Origin: a virus | Strand: one strand, 5' to 3' | Virus genome (UHGV): UHGV-2079495 | DNA length: 10,457 nucleotides | Part shown: positions 1 to 10,299 of the stretch, piece by piece | How positions within the stretch are numbered: the first letter of the stretch is position 1 | How the letters are laid out: each line of letters opens with the position of its first letter | Position numbers and translations under genes: made by a program | The notes under the pieces: model-generated | The model's database searches: none | What the model saw: only the letters and a program-made list of their open reading frames with translations | What the model was told of the DNA's origin: nothing

Positions 1-903
1 TTATGAAAGCATAGACCGTTTACCCTCCCTGGGTACGACGGAACAGGGGTCCTGATGGATAATCACATCCGATCCCGGAAAACGCCGTAAAATAGCCTGC
101 TCTACCTGATCCGCCACCATATGTGCCTGAACCAAAGGCAGAGAGTCTTCCATTTCCAAATGAATCTGAATAAAGCGGGTCGGCCCTGACTGCCGCGTGC
201 GAAGATCGTGAGCGCCGCTAACACCCGGCCAGGAAGTCACGATATCAATAATTTCTTGCCGTTCCTCATCAGGCAATGCGCGATCCAGTAATGACTGTAC
301 CGCCTCATATCCCATGCGTAACGCGCTATATAAAATATAGATGCCGATTCCCAATGCAAACAGAGCATCGGCGCGATGCCAGCCGTACCAGGACAACCCC
401 AGCGCCAGCAGAATTGCGCCGTTCATCATAACATCAGACTGGTAATGTAGCATATCAGCCCGCACCGCCTGGCTTTGCGTCCGGCGCACCACCCAACGCT
501 GAAACGAGACAAGGATAATCGTACAAATTAGCGCCACAATTGTCACGATAACCCCGACGCCTGGATCTGTCATCGGTGTTGGAGATATCAGATGTTGAAT
601 ACCCGTCAAAAACAGGAATAGTGCCGAACCGGAGATAAACATACTTTGCGCCAGCGCCGCGAGGGACTCTGCTTTACCGTGACCAAACGAGTGATTATCG
701 TCGGCAGGTTGCAGGGAATATCGCACCACCAGTAAATTCGTCAACGACGCGCCGATATCCACCAGCGAATCCACCAGCGCGGCGAGAATACTCACCGACC
801 CGGTATACCACCATGCAAAAATTTTAATCAGCAATAGCAACGAAGCCATCGCCGTCGCAGCAATCGCCGCCCGACTGACCAGCCGTCCATAAGATTGATT
901 CAT
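1..903 (-). CDS. fieF: Cation-diffusion-facilitator family ferrous-iron/zinc efflux transporter FieF (YiiP), complete; the window begins at its stop codon
   Basis: The 306-aa ORF translation contains, from the internal Met ([37 protein letters not shown]...), a 300-aa protein that I recognise as essentially full-length enterobacterial FieF/YiiP. It has multiple hydrophobic TM segments and a C-terminal cytoplasmic domain. Minus-strand SD GGGAG lies about 8 nt upstream of the ATG at 901-903. The ATG at 919-921 is an in-frame upstream alternative, judged less likely. Confidence 0.93.
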
Positions 904-929
904 AAATACTCCCGCTATCAACTGACGCT

Positions 930-959
930 AGTATAACGGAAGCAAATCATCTGCAATGC
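930..959 (-). promoter_or_regulatory. Candidate sigma70 promoter for fieF (minus-strand -10 TATACT at 935-930, weak -35 TTGCAG about 15 nt upstream)
   Basis: Read on the minus strand: ...TTGCAG-ATGATTTGCTTCCGT-TATACT-AGCGTCAG..., followed by the SD and the fieF ATG. Hexamer match judged by eye only; the spacer is short. Confidence 0.3.
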
Positions 960-984
960 ATTAAGCAGCAGGCAAATTGAGGAT

Positions 985-1011
985 AAAAAAAACCCCCACA
1001 TCATGTGGGGG
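985..1011 (-). terminator. Rho-independent terminator (minus strand): 8-bp GC-rich stem CCCCCACA/TGTGGGGG, 3-nt loop, then a U8 tract
   Basis: Plus strand reads AAAAAAAA-CCCCCACA-TCA-TGTGGGGG. On the minus strand this is a hairpin immediately followed by TTTTTTTT. Confidence 0.7.
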
Positions 1012-1102
1012 AAGACAGGGATGGTGAAGAAATCCGGCCAGTAACACAATGGAATAAAAGGATTTATTCTAATCTTCGTCTACATTTTGACTACACTTCG
1101 AC

Positions 1103-1128
1103 AAAAAAAGCCCCGTGCATTACGGGGC
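1103..1128 (-). terminator. Rho-independent terminator (minus strand) directly downstream of the cargo operon: 7-bp stem GCCCCGT/ACGGGGC, 5-nt loop, U7 tract
   Basis: Plus strand reads AAAAAAA-GCCCCGT-GCATT-ACGGGGC, beginning 12 nt beyond the stop codon (1140-1142 on the minus strand) of the secreted-protein gene. On the minus strand it is a hairpin followed by TTTTTTT. Confidence 0.75.
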
Positions 1129-1139
1129 TGCACACCGCA

Positions 1140-1772
1140 TTACTTCCATCCACACGCTTTTTGAAGTGGCTTCAATGCCTCAGACAGACCAGCAACATCA
1201 AATGTCGCGCTCACGGGACTTTCATTGTAAGGCGTGATCTGAGTAAACATTGAGTTAGCCTGGCTCAGCGCCTTGACGAACTCAATGACATTGCCACGAT
1301 AAAATACCGATTTGGTATCGCTAGATATGTCCCATGTTTTCGTTTTTGCCTTCTGTTTATCCAAGCGAGATAACATCTGTGTTTCGTTCAACCCAAGATA
1401 GGTATCCCAATTGAGGAAAAGTTCTGTTTTTTTCTCGCGGCAAGTGATGTAAAGACTTGGTGTGATCGATTCCCCAAACTGTGACCGGAAAGAATCATTA
1501 GCAGAAAGGCTAATATAAACATTCTCTGAATCATCCACGGGTGAAGTTTTCGTGGATACCTGCCATTTTCCAACACCTACCACTGGCTTAGCCTCTTCGG
1601 CTACTTTCGGTGGAAGAACCTTATCGTAACAAGCTAAACGCGCATCACTTTTTGCCTCGGATTGGCATTTCATTAATGCGTCATTGTTAATATCGGCTTT
1701 AACTGGTTCTACCGCATACGCTGTTGATACAGCAGAAGAGCAAAGCGCCATAGCAATGATTATCTTTTTCAT
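1140..1772 (-). CDS. Secreted/periplasmic protein of unknown function with a Sec signal peptide and four Cys; carries a CYD motif. Family assignment (possibly VasI-like/DUF) is unverified
   Basis: ORF 1140..1787. The N-terminus MKKIIIAMALCSSAVSTAYA-VEP is a classical signal peptide with an AYA SPase I site. The preferred start is the ATG at 1772-1770, with AAGG about 8 nt upstream. The alternative ATG at 1787-1785 overlaps the upstream gene's stop as ATGA. The mature part is hydrophilic with Cys in MKCQSE, RLACYD, ITCREKK and KACGWK. A few hand-counted 60-nt lines give roughly 40-45% G+C. Confidence 0.7.
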   Translation of the reverse strand: MKKIIIAMALCSSAVSTAYAVEPVKADINNDALMKCQSEAKSDARLACYDKVLPPKVAEEAKPVVGVGKWQVSTKTSPVDDSENVYISLSANDSFRSQFGESITPSLYITCREKKTELFLNWDTYLGLNETQMLSRLDKQKAKTKTWDISSDTKSVFYRGNVIEFVKALSQANSMFTQITPYNESPVSATFDVAGLSEALKPLQKACGWK

Positions 1773-1783
1773 ACCATTACCTT

Positions 1784-2116
1784 TCATGATTTCGGGCGAG
1801 TAAAGAAAACAAACATTCCGATAATGATATCGCCAATAACCCAGATGGTTCCCAGCATCATCATCCCCAGCCCCGTACCAATTGCGGCTCCGGCCCGTTC
1901 TGCGTCTGAGGCTGCGTTATTGATAACGTCACTACTGCCGCCAGCCCCGGCAAAAATGCAATAGATCATAAAGATGTTAAACAGGATAAAAATCCATTTA
2001 ACGATCTTGCCAAATAATGAGCGCTTCGGCTTTCTGACCTGATGGCCGCAAGACGGGCATTTAAACGCTGAATCACTAATTTCTTTACTGCATTCCGGGC
2101 AGTTTACTAATGCCAT
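1784..2116 (-). CDS. Small zinc-ribbon membrane protein (N-terminal CPxC...CPxCG zinc ribbon, two predicted TM helices), unknown function
   Basis: ORF 1784..2137. Motif ...VNCPECSKEISDSAFKCPSCGHQ... is followed by hydrophobic stretches IVKWIFILFNIFMIYCIFAGAG and AAIGTGLGMMMLGTIWVIGDIIIGMFVFF. Preferred start is the ATG at 2116-2114 (MALVNCPEC), with GGAG/AGGA upstream; ATGs at 2137 and 2131 are alternatives. The stop overlaps the start of the downstream gene (ATGA), suggesting translational coupling. Confidence 0.65.
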   Translation of the reverse strand: MALVNCPECSKEISDSAFKCPSCGHQVRKPKRSLFGKIVKWIFILFNIFMIYCIFAGAGGSSDVINNAASDAERAGAAIGTGLGMMMLGTIWVIGDIIIGMFVFFTRPKS

Positions 2117-2180
2117 TTTCCTAGACTCCATAGACATGGTTACATAACCGCCATAAAGCCTATCAGTTGATTTTGTTTGA

Positions 2181-2215
2181 ATAAATAAAAATTAACCCGC
2201 CATATAGGCGGGTTA
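2181..2215 (-). terminator. Rho-independent terminator downstream of ogr (minus strand): 9-bp stem TAACCCGCC/GGCGGGTTA followed by a U-rich tract
   Basis: Plus strand 2193-2215 is TAACCCGCC-ATATA-GGCGGGTTA, flanked by A/T-rich sequence on both sides, so it could act bidirectionally. It lies immediately 3' of the ogr stop (2218-2220) on the minus strand, followed by AATTTTTATTTATT. Confidence 0.65.
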
Positions 2216-2217
2216 TT

Positions 2218-2460
2218 TTAGAGTGCCAGCGATAACTGATCTTCGCCGTGGTGACTTCGTGGAAAAGCTTCTTGTGGCACCATCGCGCCGGGCACTGGCT
2301 GGGTCTGATTTAGTGAACCGTCTATTTCCGTCATGCTGGTGAAACAGTACCCGCACAACATATTTTGACACTGGTGATAGCTGCGCCGTACAAGCAAACT
2401 CAGCTCAACGCTGGTTCTGGTTTTTGCTATTGCACGGCAGCGAGGACAGCGCATTGCCAT
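2218..2460 (-). CDS. ogr: P2 Ogr/Delta-family zinc-finger late-gene transcriptional activator
   Basis: 80-aa ORF MAMRCPRCRAIAKTRTSVELSLLVRRSYHQCQNMLCGYCF... has the Cys arrangement C-x2-C...C-x4-C and the RYHQCQN-like core I recall from P2 Ogr (about 72 aa). Strong SD AGGAGG lies 7 nt upstream of the ATG at 2460. It sits immediately downstream of gpD, as in P2. Confidence 0.85.
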   Translation of the reverse strand: MAMRCPRCRAIAKTRTSVELSLLVRRSYHQCQNMLCGYCFTSMTEIDGSLNQTQPVPGAMVPQEAFPRSHHGEDQLSLAL

Positions 2461-2498: not shown

Positions 2499-2527
2499 AG
2501 TATAACGCTTAAGACGTTGAATCGTCA
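2499..2527 (-). promoter_or_regulatory. Candidate sigma70 promoter for ogr (minus strand: TGACGA-N17-TATACT), overlapping the 3' end of D
   Basis: Minus-strand -10 TATACT at 2504-2499 and -35-like TGACGA at 2527-2522 with a 17-nt spacer, about 40 nt upstream of the ogr ATG. Judged by eye. Confidence 0.35.
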
Positions 2528-3627
2528 CTCTCCGCTGTCCAGTCGTCGATTTTTACTTCCAGTTCCAGCGACGTGGTAAACCCTCCCCCGCCAATATCGT
2601 GAACGCACCGCGTTATCGTCCAGTTCCCACTGTCGATCGTGGACTTAAAGCCGTAGACGCTGGCGGGCTGTTCCGGGTACAAATCTGCGCGGCCACGCGC
2701 TAGGGTGATGCTGAACGTCGCCGCCCCACGCTGCAACTCTCGCCACTTAGCCGCAGCGGCACGCTTCGCCGCCTTTTCCGTCTTGAAAGTTTTACGGATA
2801 ACAAAAACGTTACCTTCGGCCCCGGCCAGATAATCCCCTTCTTTTTTGCTTGATGCAGGTTCTTTCTTTTTGGCCTGGCTGGTGCGTCGCCTGCGGGTGG
2901 TTTTCTTCACGGTAGTGGATGGCTTTTTGCCAAAGTTGAGATCAAGCCAGTATGCAGTTACGCCCGTGTACGCGTCGCGGTCAGCTACGTTAAACCTATG
3001 TTTATCACCGCTTGACCGGACGATCTCGATCACTGGCAACGGCTTGCCGCTTTGCGTTACTCCCTTGCCCGGCGTGATAAACAGAAGCATACCGTTTTTA
3101 ATGGTTGCCACCGCGCCCAGCATTTCGGCCATACGCGTTAAGAAGCTGATATCTGATTCACTCGTCTGATCGGCGTGGTCTATCTCAATCTTCGCCAGTT
3201 CTTCGCTGACACCCGCACGCAGATCGTAGCGGCTGGCAATGCTGGCGACCACATCCCCCACGGTAATATCGTGCCAGCTATATTCCCGCTTCACGTTGAA
3301 GGTATCGCGGAAATCTGCGCTTCTGGCACTGATCGTTAGCTGGTCAGGCGGGCCAGCGTGTCCGATCTCGTCAACCGTATACACGCCCTTAAAAACCAAT
3401 GGATCATTATCCCAGCCCAGCGCCACCGATATCTTTGCGCCGCGTGATGGTAATGCTACCTGCCCGTCTGCATCATCCAGAGTCAGATCCAGTGTGTCCG
3501 CTTCGAAGCCCCGGTTATCTGTCAGGGAAAGGGAGATCAGCCGGTTATCCAGCGCCGTAAGCTGCTTACCTTCAATCTCAATACTGAACGCCGGGCGCGG
3601 CGAATATCGGTTTTCTGTCGTGTCCAT
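2509..3627 (-). CDS. D: P2 gpD-family tail protein (phage late control gene D protein)
   Basis: 372-aa ORF. Size (P2 gpD is about 387 aa) and position adjacent to ogr match, and the sequence character (MDTTENRYSPRPAFSIEIEGK..., C-terminal GGGGFTTSLELEV) fits the late-control-D family as I recall it. SD GAAGGGG lies upstream of the ATG at 3627. Confidence 0.88.
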   Translation of the reverse strand: MDTTENRYSPRPAFSIEIEGKQLTALDNRLISLSLTDNRGFEADTLDLTLDDADGQVALPSRGAKISVALGWDNDPLVFKGVYTVDEIGHAGPPDQLTISARSADFRDTFNVKREYSWHDITVGDVVASIASRYDLRAGVSEELAKIEIDHADQTSESDISFLTRMAEMLGAVATIKNGMLLFITPGKGVTQSGKPLPVIEIVRSSGDKHRFNVADRDAYTGVTAYWLDLNFGKKPSTTVKKTTRRRRTSQAKKKEPASSKKEGDYLAGAEGNVFVIRKTFKTEKAAKRAAAAKWRELQRGAATFSITLARGRADLYPEQPASVYGFKSTIDSGNWTITRCVHDIGGGGFTTSLELEVKIDDWTAESDDSTS

Positions 3628-3784: not shown

Positions 3785-4978
3785 ATGGCCACTAACTACC
3801 ATCACGGTGTAACCGTCACGGAAACCACCGACCTTAGCACGATGATCACCGACATTGATTCTGCGGTGATCGGCGTTGTCTGCACCGCTGATGATGCGGA
3901 CGAAACAGCGTTCCCGCTGGATACCCCTGTACTGATCACCCGCGTGGCTAACATGCTGGGCAAGGCAGGTAAAACCGGCACCCTGTTTACCACCCTGAAA
4001 GCGATTTCAGACCAGACCAGCCCGCAAACCATTGTGATCCGCGTTGCTGATGCTGCAAATATCGAACCGCCAGAAGGCGGCACCGCACAGACACAGGATC
4101 AACTGGTTATTGGCGGCACCGATGCAAACGGACGCTTTACCGGCATGTACGCGCTGCTGTCTGCCGAAATGCGCGTAGGCGTGCGCCCACGTGTGCTGGC
4201 TGTTCCCGGTCTTGATACGGAAGCGGTGGCCGCACAACTCGGCGTCATTGCCGAAAAGCTGCGCGCGTTTGCTTACGTGGCAGCGAACGGCTGCAACACT
4301 ATCGCCGAAGTGAAGGAATACCGCGAACAGTTCTCCCAGCGTGAAATGATGGTTATCTGGCCTAATTTCATCTGCTACGACACCAACGCCGGGGCGAATG
4401 CCACCGTGCCCGTGGGTGCCCATGCGGTTGGGATGCGCGCCAAAATCGACGCAACGCAGGGCTGGCATAAAACCATTTCCAACGTGCCCGTTAATAACGT
4501 GCTGGGGATGGATCGGGATATCTATTTCACGTTGCAGGGCACCGATACCGACGCCGACGAACTGAACGCAGCAGGCGTTACCACGCTGATCAAGCAGGAC
4601 GGCTACCGCATCTGGGGATCGCGTACCTGCGACGCGGAAACGTATATCTTCGAAAGCTATACCCGAACCGCGCAGATCGTTGCGGATACCGTCGCCGAAG
4701 CCCATTTCGCCTATGTTGATAAACCGCTTACCCCGTCGCTGGTAAAGGACATTGTGGACGGCATCAATAAGAAGCTGACCTCATATGTGACGGCTGGCAA
4801 GCTGCTGGGCGCCCGCTGCTGGTATGACCCGGAACCGAATACCTCGGAAACCCTGCGCAATGGTCAACTGACCATTAAGTACAACTACACCCCTGTTCCA
4901 CCGCTGGAAAATCTCAGCCTGGTACAGGAGTTCACCGACGAATATTTCGCTACGTTTTCCAGCGCAGTGAATAACTAA
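3785..4978 (+). CDS. FI: P2 gpFI-family contractile tail sheath protein
   Basis: 397 aa (P2 FI is about 396 aa). N-terminus MATNYHHGVTVTE... and overall sequence recognised as the myovirus P2-type sheath. Followed at a 12-nt spacing by the tube gene. Confidence 0.93.
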   Translation: MATNYHHGVTVTETTDLSTMITDIDSAVIGVVCTADDADETAFPLDTPVLITRVANMLGKAGKTGTLFTTLKAISDQTSPQTIVIRVADAANIEPPEGGTAQTQDQLVIGGTDANGRFTGMYALLSAEMRVGVRPRVLAVPGLDTEAVAAQLGVIAEKLRAFAYVAANGCNTIAEVKEYREQFSQREMMVIWPNFICYDTNAGANATVPVGAHAVGMRAKIDATQGWHKTISNVPVNNVLGMDRDIYFTLQGTDTDADELNAAGVTTLIKQDGYRIWGSRTCDAETYIFESYTRTAQIVADTVAEAHFAYVDKPLTPSLVKDIVDGINKKLTSYVTAGKLLGARCWYDPEPNTSETLRNGQLTIKYNYTPVPPLENLSLVQEFTDEYFATFSSAVNN

Positions 4979-4990
4979 CCGGGGGCGCTT

Positions 4991-5506
4991 ATGGCACTGC
5001 CTAAGAAACTCAAATATTTCAATATGTTCTTTGACGGGGATAACTACTTCGGCATGGTGCCGGAAATCACCCCCGCCAAACTCACCAAAAAAACCGAAGA
5101 CTACCAGGCGGGCGGTATGCCGGGTTCAGTTGCGGTGGATCTGGGCTTCGACGCTGGCGCCCTGGATATGGATATTACGCTGGGCGGCATGGATGCCGGG
5201 CTAATGAAAAAATGGGGCGTTACCACTGCGGACGGAATGCAGGTGCGCTTTGCTGGCTCTTACCAGGACGATGCGACCGGCGACGCCGTACCGTGCGAAA
5301 TCCAGACGCGTGGCCGCTTCACTGAACTGGATCCCGGTTCGGCAAAGGTTGGGGATGATACTTCGCATAAGTACACCCTGAAAAATACCTATTACAAGCT
5401 GACCATCAATAGCGAAGAAATTATCGAAATTGATGTGCTCAACATGATCTACAAAGTTGCCGGTGTGGATGTGCTGGAAAAACACCGCGCTAACATCGGC
5501 TTATAA
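4991..5506 (+). CDS. FII: P2 gpFII-family tail tube protein
   Basis: 171 aa (P2 FII is about 172 aa). Conserved position between sheath and E. N-terminus MALPKKLKYFNMFFDG... is typical of P2-like tube proteins. SD GGGGG upstream. Confidence 0.9.
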   Translation: MALPKKLKYFNMFFDGDNYFGMVPEITPAKLTKKTEDYQAGGMPGSVAVDLGFDAGALDMDITLGGMDAGLMKKWGVTTADGMQVRFAGSYQDDATGDAVPCEIQTRGRFTELDPGSAKVGDDTSHKYTLKNTYYKLTINSEEIIEIDVLNMIYKVAGVDVLEKHRANIGL

Positions 5507-5520
5507 GGAAACCCGGCACC

Positions 5521-5856
5521 ATGAGCAAGACCAAAGAAAACACCGTTATTCTTACCGCCCCTATTACGCGCGGTAAGACCAAAATCACCGAAGTGGCGAT
5601 CACTTCCGTGCTTAAACAGGCTGGATCACTGCGCGGCTTAAAAGCCTATGACGTGCTGACGTCCAACTATGACGCGCTGGTTATTCTGCTGCCCCGCGTT
5701 ACCGCTCCGGCATTAACCGCCGATGAGATTGCCCGAATGGATACCTGGGATTTTTGCCAGTTAGCCAACGCGGTGGTTGATTTTTTGCAACCCTCTTCGG
5801 ATCTGACCGCGACGGATACGGGCAACGAATCATCCGATGCCCCTGCGAACGCATAG
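5521..5856 (+). CDS. E: P2 gpE-family tail assembly chaperone (zero-frame product)
   Basis: 111-aa ORF immediately after FII and before the tape measure. Contains the TTTTTTG slippery heptamer near its 3' end. SD AAGGAAAC upstream. Confidence 0.85.
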   Translation: MSKTKENTVILTAPITRGKTKITEVAITSVLKQAGSLRGLKAYDVLTSNYDALVILLPRVTAPALTADEIARMDTWDFCQLANAVVDFLQPSSDLTATDTGNESSDAPANA

Positions 5857-5981
5857 AAGACCTGATGGCAGATATCGCCGTCATATTCCACTGGCGGCCG
5901 GTAGAGATGGACGCCATGACGGTACAGGAAATACTGTTATGGCGTGATCAGGCGGCTGCGCGCAGTGGTGGAGATCACTAA
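5521..5981 (+). CDS. E': gpE+E' tail assembly chaperone fusion made by a programmed -1 ribosomal frameshift at 5781-5787
   Basis: After a -1 slip on T-TTT-TTG (zero-frame codons GAT TTT TTG at 5779-5787), my hand translation from 5787 reads ATLFGSDRDGYGQRIIRCPCERIEDLMADIAVIFHWRPVEMDAMTVQEILLWRDQAAARSGGDH. This open frame stops at TAA 5979-5981, which directly abuts the tape-measure ATG at 5982, the same arrangement as P2 E/E'/T. Confidence 0.7.
5781..5787 (+). promoter_or_regulatory. Programmed -1 frameshift slippery heptamer TTTTTTG (X XXY YYZ in the E frame)
   Basis: Exact heptamer in the correct phase (T-TTT-TTG) relative to the E reading frame. The -1 frame is open for 64 codons and ends exactly at the T start. 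Confidence 0.7.
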
Positions 5982-8900
5982 ATGGCAGACCGCAATTTAA
6001 ATATCAGGGTGGCATTCAGCGCCCTGAATAATATGTCCCGCCCTGTCAACGCGGCGCGCCAGAGTGCCGCCGCGTTGGCGTCTCAAATCAATCAGACCAA
6101 AACCAGCATTAAAGGGCTTGAGCGTCAGGCAACCAGCTTTGACCGCCTCACCGCAGCCAATAAAAAAACCACCGAACAACTGGCCCAGGCGAAAGAACAG
6201 GCCCGGCAAATGGCGGCGGCTTATGGCCCGTTACGCCAGCGCAGCGCCGAACAGGTTGCCGCCCTCAATCAGCAACGTGCAGCCATTCGCCAGTTAACCC
6301 AGCAGCAGAAAGGCGAGCAGACGCAGCTTAACCAGTTGCGCGCCAGCTTCTACAGCGAAGGCATTGCGATCAGCAGCGCCAGCCGGGCGACGGAACAGAT
6401 CAACCAGCGCACCGCGCAATACAACCGCCAGCTTGCCGAACAGCAGCGACGGCTTGACGCTGTTAACCAGGCGCAGGCCCGTTACAGCCGCGCCAAAGAA
6501 ACCGGCGAAAAGATGATGAGCGGGGGGATGAAAACCGCCGCAGTAGGGGCGGCAACCCTCGCACCTGTCGCCGCTGCGGTTAAATCATACAGCAGCCTTG
6601 AAGACGCCATGAAAGGCGTAGCCAAACAGGTAAACGGCTTGCGTGACGACAGCGGCAACCGCACCCCGCAGTATGAAGAAATGCAGCGGGCGATCATGGA
6701 TGCCAGCGAAAAGCTACCAATGGCTAACGGCGCTGTTGACTATGCCGCCCTGGTCGAAGGTGGCGCGCGCATGGGCGTGGCAAACAGCGATGATCCGTGG
6801 GAAAAACAAAAAGCCGATCTGCTGGCTTTCGCCAGCATGGCGGCAAAAGCTTCGGTAGCCTTTGAACTGCCCGCCGATCAGCTTTCTGAAAGCCTCGGTA
6901 AGATTGCCGGGCTGTATAAAATCCCTACCCAGAATATTGAACAGTTAGGCGACGCCATAAACTACCTGGACGATAACGCGAAGTCGAAAGGCTCCGATAT
7001 TATCGACGTGCTCCAGCGCGTTGGCGGACTTGCCAGCCAACTGGATTACAAGCAAGCCGCCGCGCTGGGTTCCACCTTCCTGACGCTTGGATCACCTGCC
7101 GAAGTTGCCGCCAGCGCAACCAATGCAATGGTGCGCGAACTATCGATCGCCACAGTACAAAGCGATAAATTTTTGGGTGCGCTGGATGAAATCGGCATCA
7201 ATGCTGAAAAAGTCCAGAAAAGCATGTCAGTGGACGCGATGGGCACGATCATTTCAGTGCTGGAAGCGTCCAAAAAACTTGCACCAGATAAGCAGGTAGC
7301 CAACCTTACTCAGATTTTCGGTAAAGAGTTCGGCGATGATGCGCAGAAACTTGCGAACAACCTGCCCGAACTACGCCGCCAGATAGAACTGACGCAGGGC
7401 GCAGCCGCTAAAGGTTCCATGAATCGGGAATCTGATATCAATAAAGCGTCCCTTTCAGCTCAGTGGCAACTGACCAAAACCGGCGCGGTTAACGCATTGA
7501 GTTCAGCAGGGGAAACGCTCCGCGAACCGCTGATGGATATCATGCTTACCGTCAGTAAGGTGGTTGGCAGCGTCCGCCGCTGGGTTGAGGCAAACCCGGC
7601 TCTGGTTGGCTCAATCATGAAAGTCACCGCAGCCATAGGCGCGTTGCTGGTTGTCGTGGGTGGCCTGATGCTGACCATCGGCGCAGTGCTCGGCCCGATG
7701 GCACTTGTTCGCCTCAGCTTCACCACGCTGGCTGGCTCCGGTGGGGTAACTCCCCTCATAGGCTCGCTGGGAAAATTATCCAGCACATTACGCGGGCTGA
7801 TCCCCTCACTATCTGGCGTGGGCCGAAGTATTAAAGACTGGCCTGCCCTCTTCCGATCTGCTGCGTCTGGCATTACCCAATTTAGTAAACAAGCTATTGG
7901 CGGGTTAAACACAGCGTTAATGGCACTTTCACGCGGTGCTGTTGCTGCCGGACAGGGGCTATTTACCCTATTCACAAGGCCTATGACGGCTATAACCTGG
8001 CTTGGTAATGGCCTCAGAACTCTGGCGACCTCCGGTTTCGGCGCTTTGCTGAACGTTGGACGCACCGTAATGATGGCGTTGGGTGGCGGGTTATCATTAC
8101 TTCTTAGCCCTATTGGAATACTGGTAATCGCTTTATCAGCAGCAGCGATCGCCGTTATTAAATTCTGGGAACCTATAAAAGCCTTTTTCACTGGCTTTTA
8201 CACCGGGTTAATGAGTGGCTTACAGCCTTTAACCTCAGCATTTAGTACAGCCTTTGCACCACTAGCCCCACTCTTTGACTCTATCGGTAATGCTGTCGGT
8301 GGCGTCTGGGAGTGGTTCACAAAACTATTCGAACCTATCCAGTTCTCCAGCGAAGCGCTAGCCTCCTGCACCAGTGCCGGGGAAACGTTCGGTAAGGTTG
8401 TAGGTAACGCTCTATCTGCATTAACACCAATAATCGAAGGAATAGCGCGCGGTATAGGATGGGTACTGGAAAAACTCGGCGCCATCCCCGACGCAACAAA
8501 AGCAGCGCAGCAAGCTGCGGAAAGTATGCACAAAGACCCTGTTGTCTGGGAGTGGGATCCGCAGCAAAAGAAAATGGTTAAAAAGGGTTGGAACTGGTCG
8601 CCGAAAGACGATCAGCAGAAGAAAACCAACCAGAAGCAACAGCAGGCCATTGACCAGCAGAAAAAGCAGGAAAGCTTAATTAACTCGCTCAAGGGCCCGG
8701 CCAACATCGTGCCGAAGATGAGCAGCAGCCTGGATAAGATCGCCACCAATACCACGGAGAAGAAAGACGGCCCCGGCGAAATTGTCTTCAAGAATAAGCA
8801 GCCCTATATCCCGATCCGTGGTGGATATTCGGAACCGCTTAAGCAGGTGCAGCGCCAACTACCATCCCTTACCGATTGGGTGACGCAGCAGGCCGGATCG

Positions 8901-9152
8901 CTGATCGCTTCCGTTACGCCTTGGCAGGTTGAGAAGCCCGCCGCACGGATGCCTGTTTCGGCGTCTCCGTCTGCGGCTTCCGTCGCTGCGCTGATGCCTG
9001 CTCCGGGTGGCGATGTATATAACCTTAACTTCGACTTTAGCGGCCAGAAACTGGATGAAGAAACCATTATCAGGCGCGTGCGCGAAGAACTTGCGTTAGC
9101 GAAGCAACAGGCCGACCGGCGCAAGCGCTCCCAACTGACCGATCACGTCTAA
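5982..9152 (+). CDS. T: Tail tape measure protein (P2 gpT family)
   Basis: 1056-aa ORF immediately after E/E'. N-terminal Q/A-rich, coiled-coil-like region, a central hydrophobic Gly/Ala-rich segment and a C-terminal K/Q-rich region, typical of tape measure proteins. Position between E' and U is as in P2. Confidence 0.9.
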   Translation: MADRNLNIRVAFSALNNMSRPVNAARQSAAALASQINQTKTSIKGLERQATSFDRLTAANKKTTEQLAQAKEQARQMAAAYGPLRQRSAEQVAALNQQRAAIRQLTQQQKGEQTQLNQLRASFYSEGIAISSASRATEQINQRTAQYNRQLAEQQRRLDAVNQAQARYSRAKETGEKMMSGGMKTAAVGAATLAPVAAAVKSYSSLEDAMKGVAKQVNGLRDDSGNRTPQYEEMQRAIMDASEKLPMANGAVDYAALVEGGARMGVANSDDPWEKQKADLLAFASMAAKASVAFELPADQLSESLGKIAGLYKIPTQNIEQLGDAINYLDDNAKSKGSDIIDVLQRVGGLASQLDYKQAAALGSTFLTLGSPAEVAASATNAMVRELSIATVQSDKFLGALDEIGINAEKVQKSMSVDAMGTIISVLEASKKLAPDKQVANLTQIFGKEFGDDAQKLANNLPELRRQIELTQGAAAKGSMNRESDINKASLSAQWQLTKTGAVNALSSAGETLREPLMDIMLTVSKVVGSVRRWVEANPALVGSIMKVTAAIGALLVVVGGLMLTIGAVLGPMALVRLSFTTLAGSGGVTPLIGSLGKLSSTLRGLIPSLSGVGRSIKDWPALFRSAASGITQFSKQAIGGLNTALMALSRGAVAAGQGLFTLFTRPMTAITWLGNGLRTLATSGFGALLNVGRTVMMALGGGLSLLLSPIGILVIALSAAAIAVIKFWEPIKAFFTGFYTGLMSGLQPLTSAFSTAFAPLAPLFDSIGNAVGGVWEWFTKLFEPIQFSSEALASCTSAGETFGKVVGNALSALTPIIEGIARGIGWVLEKLGAIPDATKAAQQAAESMHKDPVVWEWDPQQKKMVKKGWNWSPKDDQQKKTNQKQQQAIDQQKKQESLINSLKGPANIVPKMSSSLDKIATNTTEKKDGPGEIVFKNKQPYIPIRGGYSEPLKQVQRQLPSLTDWVTQQAGSLIASVTPWQVEKPAARMPVSASPSAASVAALMPAPGGDVYNLNFDFSGQKLDEETIIRRVREELALAKQQADRRKRSQLTDHV

Positions 9153-9161
9153 GGCAATATC

Positions 9162-9611
9162 ATGATGATGATTCTGGGGATGTTCCCCTTTTCACTGCAA
9201 ACCACACCTTACCAGAGTGCGAATAAAACCAACTCCTGGCGGCACGTCAAAAACGATCGCGTGGGGAAATCCCCGCGCTATCAGTTCATCGGCGCAGATG
9301 AAGAACCGTTCGTACTCAGCGGCACGCTGTACCCCGAAATAAGCGGCGGTGATGTGTCGCTTGTCATGCTGGAAACTATGGCTTTTTCCGGGCGCCCGTG
9401 GCCCCTGATAGAAGGCACGGGCAGGATCTACGGCATGTATGTAATTGAGCAGATCACGCAAAACCGGACGGAGTTTTTTAAGGACGGGAAGGCAAAGAAA
9501 ATTGATTTCACGCTCAACCTGAAACGGGTAAGCGAGGACATACGGGAAAAGCTGGCTGAAACCACTACCGACGATCTCTTCTCTCTGGTGAAAACCAACC
9601 TTTCGATATAA
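9162..9611 (+). CDS. U: P2 gpU-family tail protein
   Basis: 149 aa (P2 gpU is about 159 aa), directly downstream of T (9-nt gap, SD AAGG). N-terminus MMMILGMFPFSLQTTPYQ... resembles gpU as I recall it. Confidence 0.85.
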   Translation: MMMILGMFPFSLQTTPYQSANKTNSWRHVKNDRVGKSPRYQFIGADEEPFVLSGTLYPEISGGDVSLVMLETMAFSGRPWPLIEGTGRIYGMYVIEQITQNRTEFFKDGKAKKIDFTLNLKRVSEDIREKLAETTTDDLFSLVKTNLSI

Positions 9612-9717: not shown

Positions 9718-10299
9718 TTATAACCGGCCATGCGTGCCGGAATTCTTATCTCTGGTCGCTGGGAATTTTTTGTAAAGCGTAGATATCCCAACATCATAAA
9801 TTATGGCAACCCTCCGGCGCGATTCCCCTGCCGCTATTAACCTACCCGCCTGCGCCCATTGTTCTGGTGTTAGTTTTGGACGTCTACCGCCGATCCTTCC
9901 CTGCGCGCGAGCGGCCACCAGTCCTGCACGCGTACGCTCGACAATCAATTCTCTTTCCATCTCTGCCAGTGCTCCCATAACATGAAAAAAGAAACGCCCC
10001 ATTGGTGTTGAGGTATCAATACTGTCAGTCAGGCTGCGGAAGTTCACGGAACGTTGCTTTAGTTCCTCCACCAGAATGACCAAGTTCCGCATACTCCGCC
10101 CAAGACGATCCAGCTTCCAGACAACAAGCGTATCTTCTGGAGAAAGGCGCTTTAGTAATTTTTTAAGCCCTGGCCTTTCCGCTGTTCTCCCGCTCATTTT
10201 ATCTTCAAAAATTATCTCACATCCTGACCGCTCAAGCGCATCACGTTGCAAAGCCGTGTTCTGGTCATTTGTTGATACGCGCACATATCCAATAAGCAT
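9718..10299 (-). CDS. pin: Serine-recombinase DNA invertase of the Pin/Gin/Cin/Hin family
   Basis: 193-aa ORF MLIGYVRVSTNDQNT...DTLVVWKLDRLGRSM...SLTDSIDTSTPMGRFFFHVMGALAEMERELIVERT...STLYKKF. It is near-collinear with E. coli e14 Pin and Salmonella Hin as I recall them, with the catalytic Ser in the RVSTNDQ motif and a C-terminal HTH. SD AAGGAA upstream of the ATG at 10299-10297. Confidence 0.93.
   Translation of the reverse strand: MLIGYVRVSTNDQNTALQRDALERSGCEIIFEDKMSGRTAERPGLKKLLKRLSPEDTLVVWKLDRLGRSMRNLVILVEELKQRSVNFRSLTDSIDTSTPMGRFFFHVMGALAEMERELIVERTRAGLVAARAQGRIGGRRPKLTPEQWAQAGRLIAAGESRRRVAIIYDVGISTLYKKFPATRDKNSGTHGRL

Follow-up and report, generated by a model that had tools for sequence, protein, structure and literature searches.

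An att core at the 3' end of CpxQ as the probable fieF-side boundary of a P2-like prophage

Where does bacterial DNA give way to phage DNA in a viral sequence that opens with a host gene, and what has become of the gene that is usually next to it? The window analyzed here, by which we mean the whole 10,457-nucleotide stretch of UHGV virus genome UHGV-2079495, begins at the stop codon of fieF. In E. coli K-12 the genes cpxP, cpxQ and fieF follow one another in one direction, with cpxP directly upstream of fieF; a preliminary description of this DNA had given the same order for cpxP and fieF, in agreement with the K-12 annotation. cpxP is not within the window. We assign a probability of roughly 0.93 to the reading that positions 982-1026 are the attR core of a P2-like prophage (Peduoviridae, SEN4/SEN5 type) that is integrated at the Wphi site and has its ogr-proximal end here. 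The locus is thus an ordinary prophage boundary, already known in kind and in site.

The end of host identity and the att core

The host side of the boundary comprises three features.

1-903, minus strand: coding sequence of the host gene fieF (RefSeq annotation), the window beginning at its stop codon
904-981, minus strand: host 5' region of fieF, on the right-hand side of the att core, with no difference from K-12 or ECONIH5
982-1026, minus strand: 45-bp att core of attR, CACCATCCCTGTCTTCCCCCACATGATGTGGGGGTTTTTTTTATC, made up of the 3'-terminal 42 nt of CpxQ together with ATC

Alignment to K-12 gives unbroken identity from fieF through position 1026, where it ends. Only 6 of these 1026 positions differ from K-12 (1020/1026 identical), so the host part is E. 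coli; a single position differs from ECONIH5. Within fieF itself there are 5 differences from the K-12 gene and 1 from that of ECONIH5. Prophage-free K-12, BL21 and an O157:H7 strain all part from the window at base 1027, and none of them shares 904-1140 and the sequence beyond it. The breakpoint at 1026/1027 therefore falls inside 904-1140, the interval in which a junction, and possibly an att core, had been expected from the sequence of the window.

The core was recognized from related lysogens. ECONIH5 carries a prophage whose end is 98.9% identical to the window over 1601 bases (window 700-2300), both cargo genes included. This prophage sits between fieF and cpxP with int adjoining cpxP, and its attL and attR share the 45-bp direct repeat CACCATCCCTGTCTTCCCCCACATGATGTGGGGGTTTTTTTTATC, with int and cpxP at the far end. 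The repeat is likewise present at attL and attR of SWYHX138.261ft. It matches, at all 45 bases, the attP cores of Wphi, fiAA91-ss and R18C, those of several P2-like phages of Yersinia and Salmonella, and further ones; attB differs from the repeat only at one polymorphic loop base. In K-12 coordinates, the repeat corresponds to the final 42 nt of the 58-nt cpxQ gene plus 3 nt, and it starts 26 nt past the cpxP stop codon. Insertion at the 3' end of the upstream host gene, as had been suggested, is borne out in that the core lies in the cpxP 3' UTR. A direct repeat shared with the other prophage end had also been anticipated. Such a repeat exists in the ECONIH5 relative, whereas the window's own attL is absent; the repeat at the other end is known from relatives only, because the window is without int, attL and cpxP. 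The int gene adjoins the P' arm in ECONIH5, SEN5, SWYHX138.261ft and a circular element, NZ_JBQJRQ010000002.1 from E. coli 2020N21-246-1. This element, of 32,330 bp, contains P arm, core, P' arm and int, that is, an intact attP. It is labelled a plasmid, and the chromosome of the same strain also has the arm adjoining fieF; an excised or replicating phage genome seems to have been assembled as a separate record.

Since only one end is present, we considered whether the element was truncated in its source genome, with the int side and attL, possibly together with cpxP, deleted. The window holds about 9.4 kb of phage DNA, and one prophage at this site does span only about 20 kb and contains IS150. 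Truncation nevertheless appears unlikely, given that the tail-module genes D, sheath, tube, E, T and U are all full-length open reading frames, that the ECONIH5 prophage has both ends with the repeat, and that a further relative is the circular molecule just described. The short prophage, a Wphi-type element in 51008369SK1 (locus L007, 763-2132; also L010), measures about 20 kb from attL to attR with IS150 after ogr, and has probably decayed in view of that span and the insertion sequence. On the reading of 982-1026 as attR, cpxP is displaced by about 32 kb to the int end of the prophage. The apparent absence of the usual neighbor of fieF is accordingly real for the window, but the gene has been moved rather than lost.

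The identity of the core with the end of CpxQ suggests how such an arrangement could arise. CpxQ is a 3'-UTR-derived sRNA that has its terminator in common with the mRNA, and was described in 2016, later than the att site (PMC9438474). In the proposed mechanism, the phage tyrosine integrase would have inserted the prophage into the cpxP 3' UTR, inside CpxQ. The phage would bring its own copy of the final 42 nt of the sRNA, terminator included, such that integration would rebuild an intact cpxP-CpxQ unit at attL with its 3' end taken from the phage. A 5'-truncated CpxQ remnant with the original host half of the terminator would stay behind at attR, before fieF. At attL of the relatives, the whole of CpxQ is indeed rebuilt from a host 5' part and a phage 3' part. 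At attR, the 3' 42 nt of CpxQ alone is present: phage DNA stands in place of the 16-nt 5' part, which the relatives retain in a complete CpxQ at attL, and the small first hairpin of CpxQ (AGACA/TGTCT) is disrupted. A full CpxQ, 58 nt long with its 5' seed and directly downstream of cpxP, is therefore absent from attR. An Rfam search of the window gave nothing at or above the gathering score, and the sub-threshold matches in 900-1200 were terminator-like and belonged to unrelated families, so that Rfam provided no independent support for CpxQ.

Strand exchange and the two terminators

The core overlaps the first of two hairpins and includes the probable site of recombination.

985-1011, minus strand: predicted cpxP/CpxQ intrinsic terminator, attR copy, with an 8-bp stem, 3-nt loop and T8, matching the 3' end of K-12 cpxQ
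1002-1026, no strand assigned: interval holding the strand-exchange point, from two lysogens with a loop marker base
1102-1129, minus strand: predicted intrinsic terminator of the phage cargo operon, beginning 10 nt past the TAA at 1140-1142

One base in the loop of the first hairpin (window 1001; position 4106371 of K-12, NC_000913) is polymorphic in E. coli and serves as a natural marker. It is C in K-12-type hosts, with an exact match to the K-12 sequence in about 1050 of 5426 genomes; an A is present in BL21, O157, ECONIH5 and the window, as well as in every attP examined. Two C-type hosts were found to be lysogens, 51008369SK1 with a Wphi-type prophage and SWYHX138.261ft with a window-type prophage. 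In both, attL has the phage A and attR the host C. It follows that the loop and the fieF-side sequence at attR (982-1001) are host DNA, and that exchange takes place on the cpxP side of the loop base, within 1002-1026, an interval deduced from one or two marker bases in two lysogens. The same segregation of the loop base, phage-type at attL and host-type at attR, led us to reject a model in which the terminator hairpin provides the two core-type Int sites and the crossover falls in the loop. That arrangement is also opposed in one lysogen, 51008369SK1, by a difference in G-run length (G4/G5) in the right half of the stem, which segregates like the loop base.

Within the remaining interval, attB contains a perfect inverted repeat, AGACA/TGTCT, around the 7-bp sequence CCATCCC (1018-1024), and to the left of CCATCCC phage/host identity ends after 2 nt in the window-type phage and after 4 nt in Wphi. 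An inverted repeat around a short overlap at the edge of identity is the usual layout of a tyrosine-recombinase core. We infer from this layout that CCATCCC is likely to be the 7-bp overlap region, and that strand exchange would occur in it, between the two halves of the attB inverted repeat.

Two tandem minus-strand terminators had been proposed near fieF, and both hairpins are indeed present. In the first, the stem occupies 1011-993 and T8 occupies 992-985, with a fold energy of -14.4 kcal/mol; in the second, a stem at 1129-1109 is followed by a T-run at 1108-1103, with a fold energy of -15.4 kcal/mol. Three terminator-like sites occur in 1.6 kb compared with 1.5 +/- 1.3 in shuffled sequences, so that the count alone is not significant. 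We judged both hairpins to be real because of where they are placed, one at the stop of the 1140-1787 open reading frame and one at the annotated 3' end of cpxQ. Each combines a G+C-rich stem-loop with a U-run that ends a transcription unit, as expected of intrinsic (Rho-independent) terminators, and both are predicted to act as such. Because the core consists of the last 42 nt of CpxQ plus 3 nt, the 993-1011 hairpin is the cpxP/CpxQ terminator. The suggestion that it is a host terminator left next to fieF is thus correct as to its identity and as to 982-1001, which is host-derived, but the hairpin is common to phage and host. The second hairpin closes the cargo operon, as had been supposed, its first base lying 10 nt after the stop codon. 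Together, the tandem terminators may shield fieF from phage transcription. A candidate fieF promoter that had been proposed upstream of the gene gained no support: no sigma-70-like site passed the promoter scan in 904-981.

The phage arm and its relatives

Beyond the core, the sequence belongs to the phage.

1027-1108, minus strand: phage P arm of attP, which adjoins the core in SEN4/SEN5, phiT5282H and the circular attP-bearing element

The stretch 1027-1112 is not the Wphi arm; with the core (982-1112) it is 98% identical to SEN4/SEN5 and 95.5% identical to phiT5282H. It contains paired repeats, TGTAGTCA at 1088-1095 and TGTAGACG at 1077-1084, and the P' arm of relatives has TGTAGACA twice. 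The consensus of the P2-type Int arm site is tgTGGaCa (PMC3448106), and the window's repeats match it at 6-7 of 8 bases, so we regard them as a variant of the P2-type repeat. An IHF-like motif at 1042-1054, a candidate by sequence alone, matches its consensus weakly. These features suggest that the P arm may bind Int and IHF.

Several features are common to this system and Wphi, including the host site, the identical 45-bp core (with identity 2 nt longer in Wphi), and an attP layout in which arm repeats are paired on each side and the P arm includes a bend-like, A/T-rich motif. The two differ in that the window type reads TGTAGAC/TGTAGTC where Wphi reads TGTGGAC at the same positions, in the order of the tail-module genes, and in the interval between ogr and attP, which is empty in Wphi but holds a two-gene cargo operon in the window's phage. 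The Int of the window's phage type, taken from the ECONIH5 relative, is 99% identical to that of SEN5 but only 68% identical to that of Wphi. Given this Int identity and the different arms, two diverged Int/arm lineages use one core. SEN4/SEN5 (Senquatrovirus, Salmonella) and phiT5282H (Enterobacter) have the same P arm and core as the window, and SEN5 also has ogr and D in common with it; the ogr-attP cargo of SEN5, however, is SEN5_30 rather than the zinc-ribbon/VasI-like pair.

We also considered whether the attR junction makes an RNA of its own, either a chimeric sRNA from a promoter at 1093-1066 on the minus strand or the 3' end of a cargo mRNA that reads through. Either RNA would join a new 5' part of phage origin to the CpxQ terminator. 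A promoter-like site is present there (9/12 matches), the phage stretch TTTTATTCCATTG downstream of it loosely resembles the CpxQ 5' end TTTTCCTTGCC, and the CpxQ terminator and its U-tail are intact at attR. However, an arm-type Int repeat encloses the -35 element of this site, and the weak IHF-like motif shares bases with the CpxQ-like stretch. attP function accounts for both features, and Wphi, though different in sequence, is laid out in the same way. Promoter-like sites were moreover no commoner than in shuffled sequences. The CpxQ seed for nhaB and cfa is the 5' end of the sRNA (PMC6755755), which lies outside the core, and the first CpxQ hairpin is broken at attR. A junction RNA has little in its favor, since attP protein-binding motifs occupy the positions of both the promoter-like site and the CpxQ-like stretch, and we consider it quite improbable. 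Its more specific form, a chimeric CpxQ-like sRNA with its own promoter, was set aside, as these features coincide with Int repeats and the IHF-like motif just as in the Wphi attP. The CpxQ-type terminator is the usual Hfq-binding part of such sRNAs. Transcription of the 3' module of CpxQ at attR (internal region, terminator and U-tail) from phage signals, whether 1093-1066 or cargo read-through, is likewise quite improbable; were it to occur, lysogens would make a second CpxQ-related, Hfq-binding RNA that is independent of CpxR, and lysogeny would alter the envelope-stress sRNA network.

The same attR as in the window adjoins fieF in two Citrobacter genomes. A pattern search of contigs returned 0 matches for the arm/core-junction pattern and 6 loci for the arm-repeat pattern. 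Other arrangements of these elements were observed. In Salmonella enterica s1 (L014, 7330-7620) and Kosakonia oryziphila (L012, 5450-5740), the window-type P arm and core are followed by Wphi-like P' sequence, not by fieF, and in s1 the P arm is preceded by the window's cargo terminator. Contig 55 of Citrobacter sp. NCU1 (L013, 1-270) has the arm and core followed by a window-type P' arm, with a compensated change in the hairpin stem. These arrangements could represent tandem prophages, hybrid att sites or excised forms. Enterobacter sp. Bisph1 (L017, 6390-6680) has the same arm repeats with a clearly different sequence at the core position, TTCGCCA-CCCTGAATTCCCC..., and may be a retargeted relative of the same integration module.

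The cargo slot and the occupied site

Between the P arm and the conserved phage genes lies a small operon.

1140-1787, minus strand: cargo gene 2, a predicted exported VasI/TagO-like protein of 215 aa (PF11319 VasI, E 3.4e-13; phrog_1848)
1784-2137, minus strand: cargo gene 1, a zinc-ribbon protein whose C-terminal part is DrpB-like (membrane protein) (zinc-ribbon Pfam, phrog_6586)
2193-2460, minus strand: ogr at 2218-2460 (PF04606 Ogr_Delta, E 1.5e-13) and its terminator at 2193-2215

For cargo gene 1, all zinc-ribbon Pfam matches fall below the curated cut-offs and the DrpB/YedR match is weak; RefSeq places its start at 2116, and 4 nt are common to it and gene 2. A PADLOC search with the two cargo proteins returned no match. 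The pair (1140-2137, minus strand) recurs in other P2-like phages, namely 500465-2, PhiR44_2 and Citrobacter Shae_phiSM, where it is about 72% identical in DNA sequence and again lies at the end nearest ogr (a relative of the pair lies in L020, 1588-2818). In 500465-2 another host gene, flk, is adjacent, indicating that movement of the pair is not tied to the integration site. The last conserved phage gene ahead of this slot is ogr, and the ogr-attP interval (1130-2217) is a variable cargo slot among the compared prophages. It is empty in Wphi and SWYHX138.261ft, and contains one unrelated open reading frame in SEN5, one hypothetical open reading frame in the circular element, a metallophosphoesterase in several E. 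coli, and IS150 with a hypothetical protein in 51008369SK1. A 2026 preprint on P2 hotspots names, in the part consulted, an integrase-to-att hotspot among several minor ones; that part contains no mention of an ogr-to-att hotspot.

The rest of the window contains a P2-like tail module (D, sheath, tube, E, tape measure T and U) and a DNA invertase, and thus structural and late genes of the P2 type. D (2509-3627, minus strand) and ogr are on the strand opposite to sheath, tube, E, T and U (3785-9611, plus strand), an arrangement unlike the P2 gene order. The tape measure protein has 1056 aa. A Hin/Gin-type DNA invertase follows U (9718-10299, minus strand), which suggests an invertible tail-fiber segment beyond the window.

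The variability of the slot bears on where the boundary is drawn. If the boundary were instead at the second terminator (about 1100-1140), 1027-1100 would be host DNA or the leftover of another element. The cargo does vary between prophages while 1027-1112 is constant (in matches covering query positions 1-413), a pattern that on its own could be taken for host DNA. However, 1027-1112 lies between the core and phage genes in SEN4/SEN5, phiT5282H and the circular attP element; it contains the paired P2-type arm repeats, mirrored in the P' arm beside int; and it is present in only 34 of 5426 E. coli genomes. A boundary at the second terminator is accordingly very improbable.

A survey of complete E. 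coli genomes shows how the site is used. cpxP-fieF is uninterrupted in 4591 of 5426 (about 85%; 4593 with a shorter query). A Wphi-type arm is present in 786 of the 5426 and a window-type (SEN4/SEN5) arm in 34, which together make up nearly all of the approximately 835 occupied sites. That there is no junction at all, the gene order being native and the sequence upstream of fieF ordinary host DNA, has a chance close to negligible, since no support for it was found (in all 5426 genomes the match to the query is confined to its fieF-side part), the uninterrupted cpxP-fieF order predominates, and the window matches phage genomes from 1027 onward.

Temperate elements are known in the 3' ends of tRNA, tmRNA and sRNA genes, such as 186 in tRNA-Ile and Fels-2/SopEphi in ssrA, where a copy borne by the element restores the gene. 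The element described here resembles these 3'-end integrators in its long block of identity, which covers a small-RNA gene between the crossover and its 3' end; because of this coverage, the gene is rebuilt at attL. It differs from them in its target, a 3'-UTR-derived sRNA whose terminator also serves the mRNA (CpxQ; PMC9438474). Long cores that preserve an intact tRNA gene have been described (PMC3448106), and in E. coli W further P2-like prophages occupy the sRNA genes rybB and cyaR (PMC3032704, Table 2). The site itself is also on record. The insertion list for E. coli W gives 'cpxP-fieF: Wphi1 (P2)' (Archer et al. 2011, PMC3032704, Table 2), the Wphi site has been placed at MG1655 position 4104392, with L-413C having the same core (Nilsson et al. 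2011, PMC3448106, Table 1), and a 31.7-kb prophage between fieF and cpxP has been reported in Salmonella Infantis (2026 preprint). Among the literature searched, we found no paper tying CpxQ to P2-like phages, prophage integration sites or integrases. The cpxP-fieF site is thus already in the literature, and only its overlap with CpxQ seems to have gone unremarked.

The importance of these observations is mostly one of correct annotation, in that the prophage boundary is set. This assignment explains the absence of cpxP from the window, and leaves fieF and its upstream region untouched. The natural loop marker narrows the crossover to 25 bp and yields a testable overlap sequence. To the published account it adds a small point, namely that the attachment site of Wphi is the 3' end of the CpxQ sRNA. 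Lysogeny in a C-type (K-12-type) host switches the loop base of the CpxQ terminator from C to A. More broadly, because the site is the 3' end of CpxQ, the CpxQ made by about 15% of complete E. coli genomes has a 3' end that comes from a phage.
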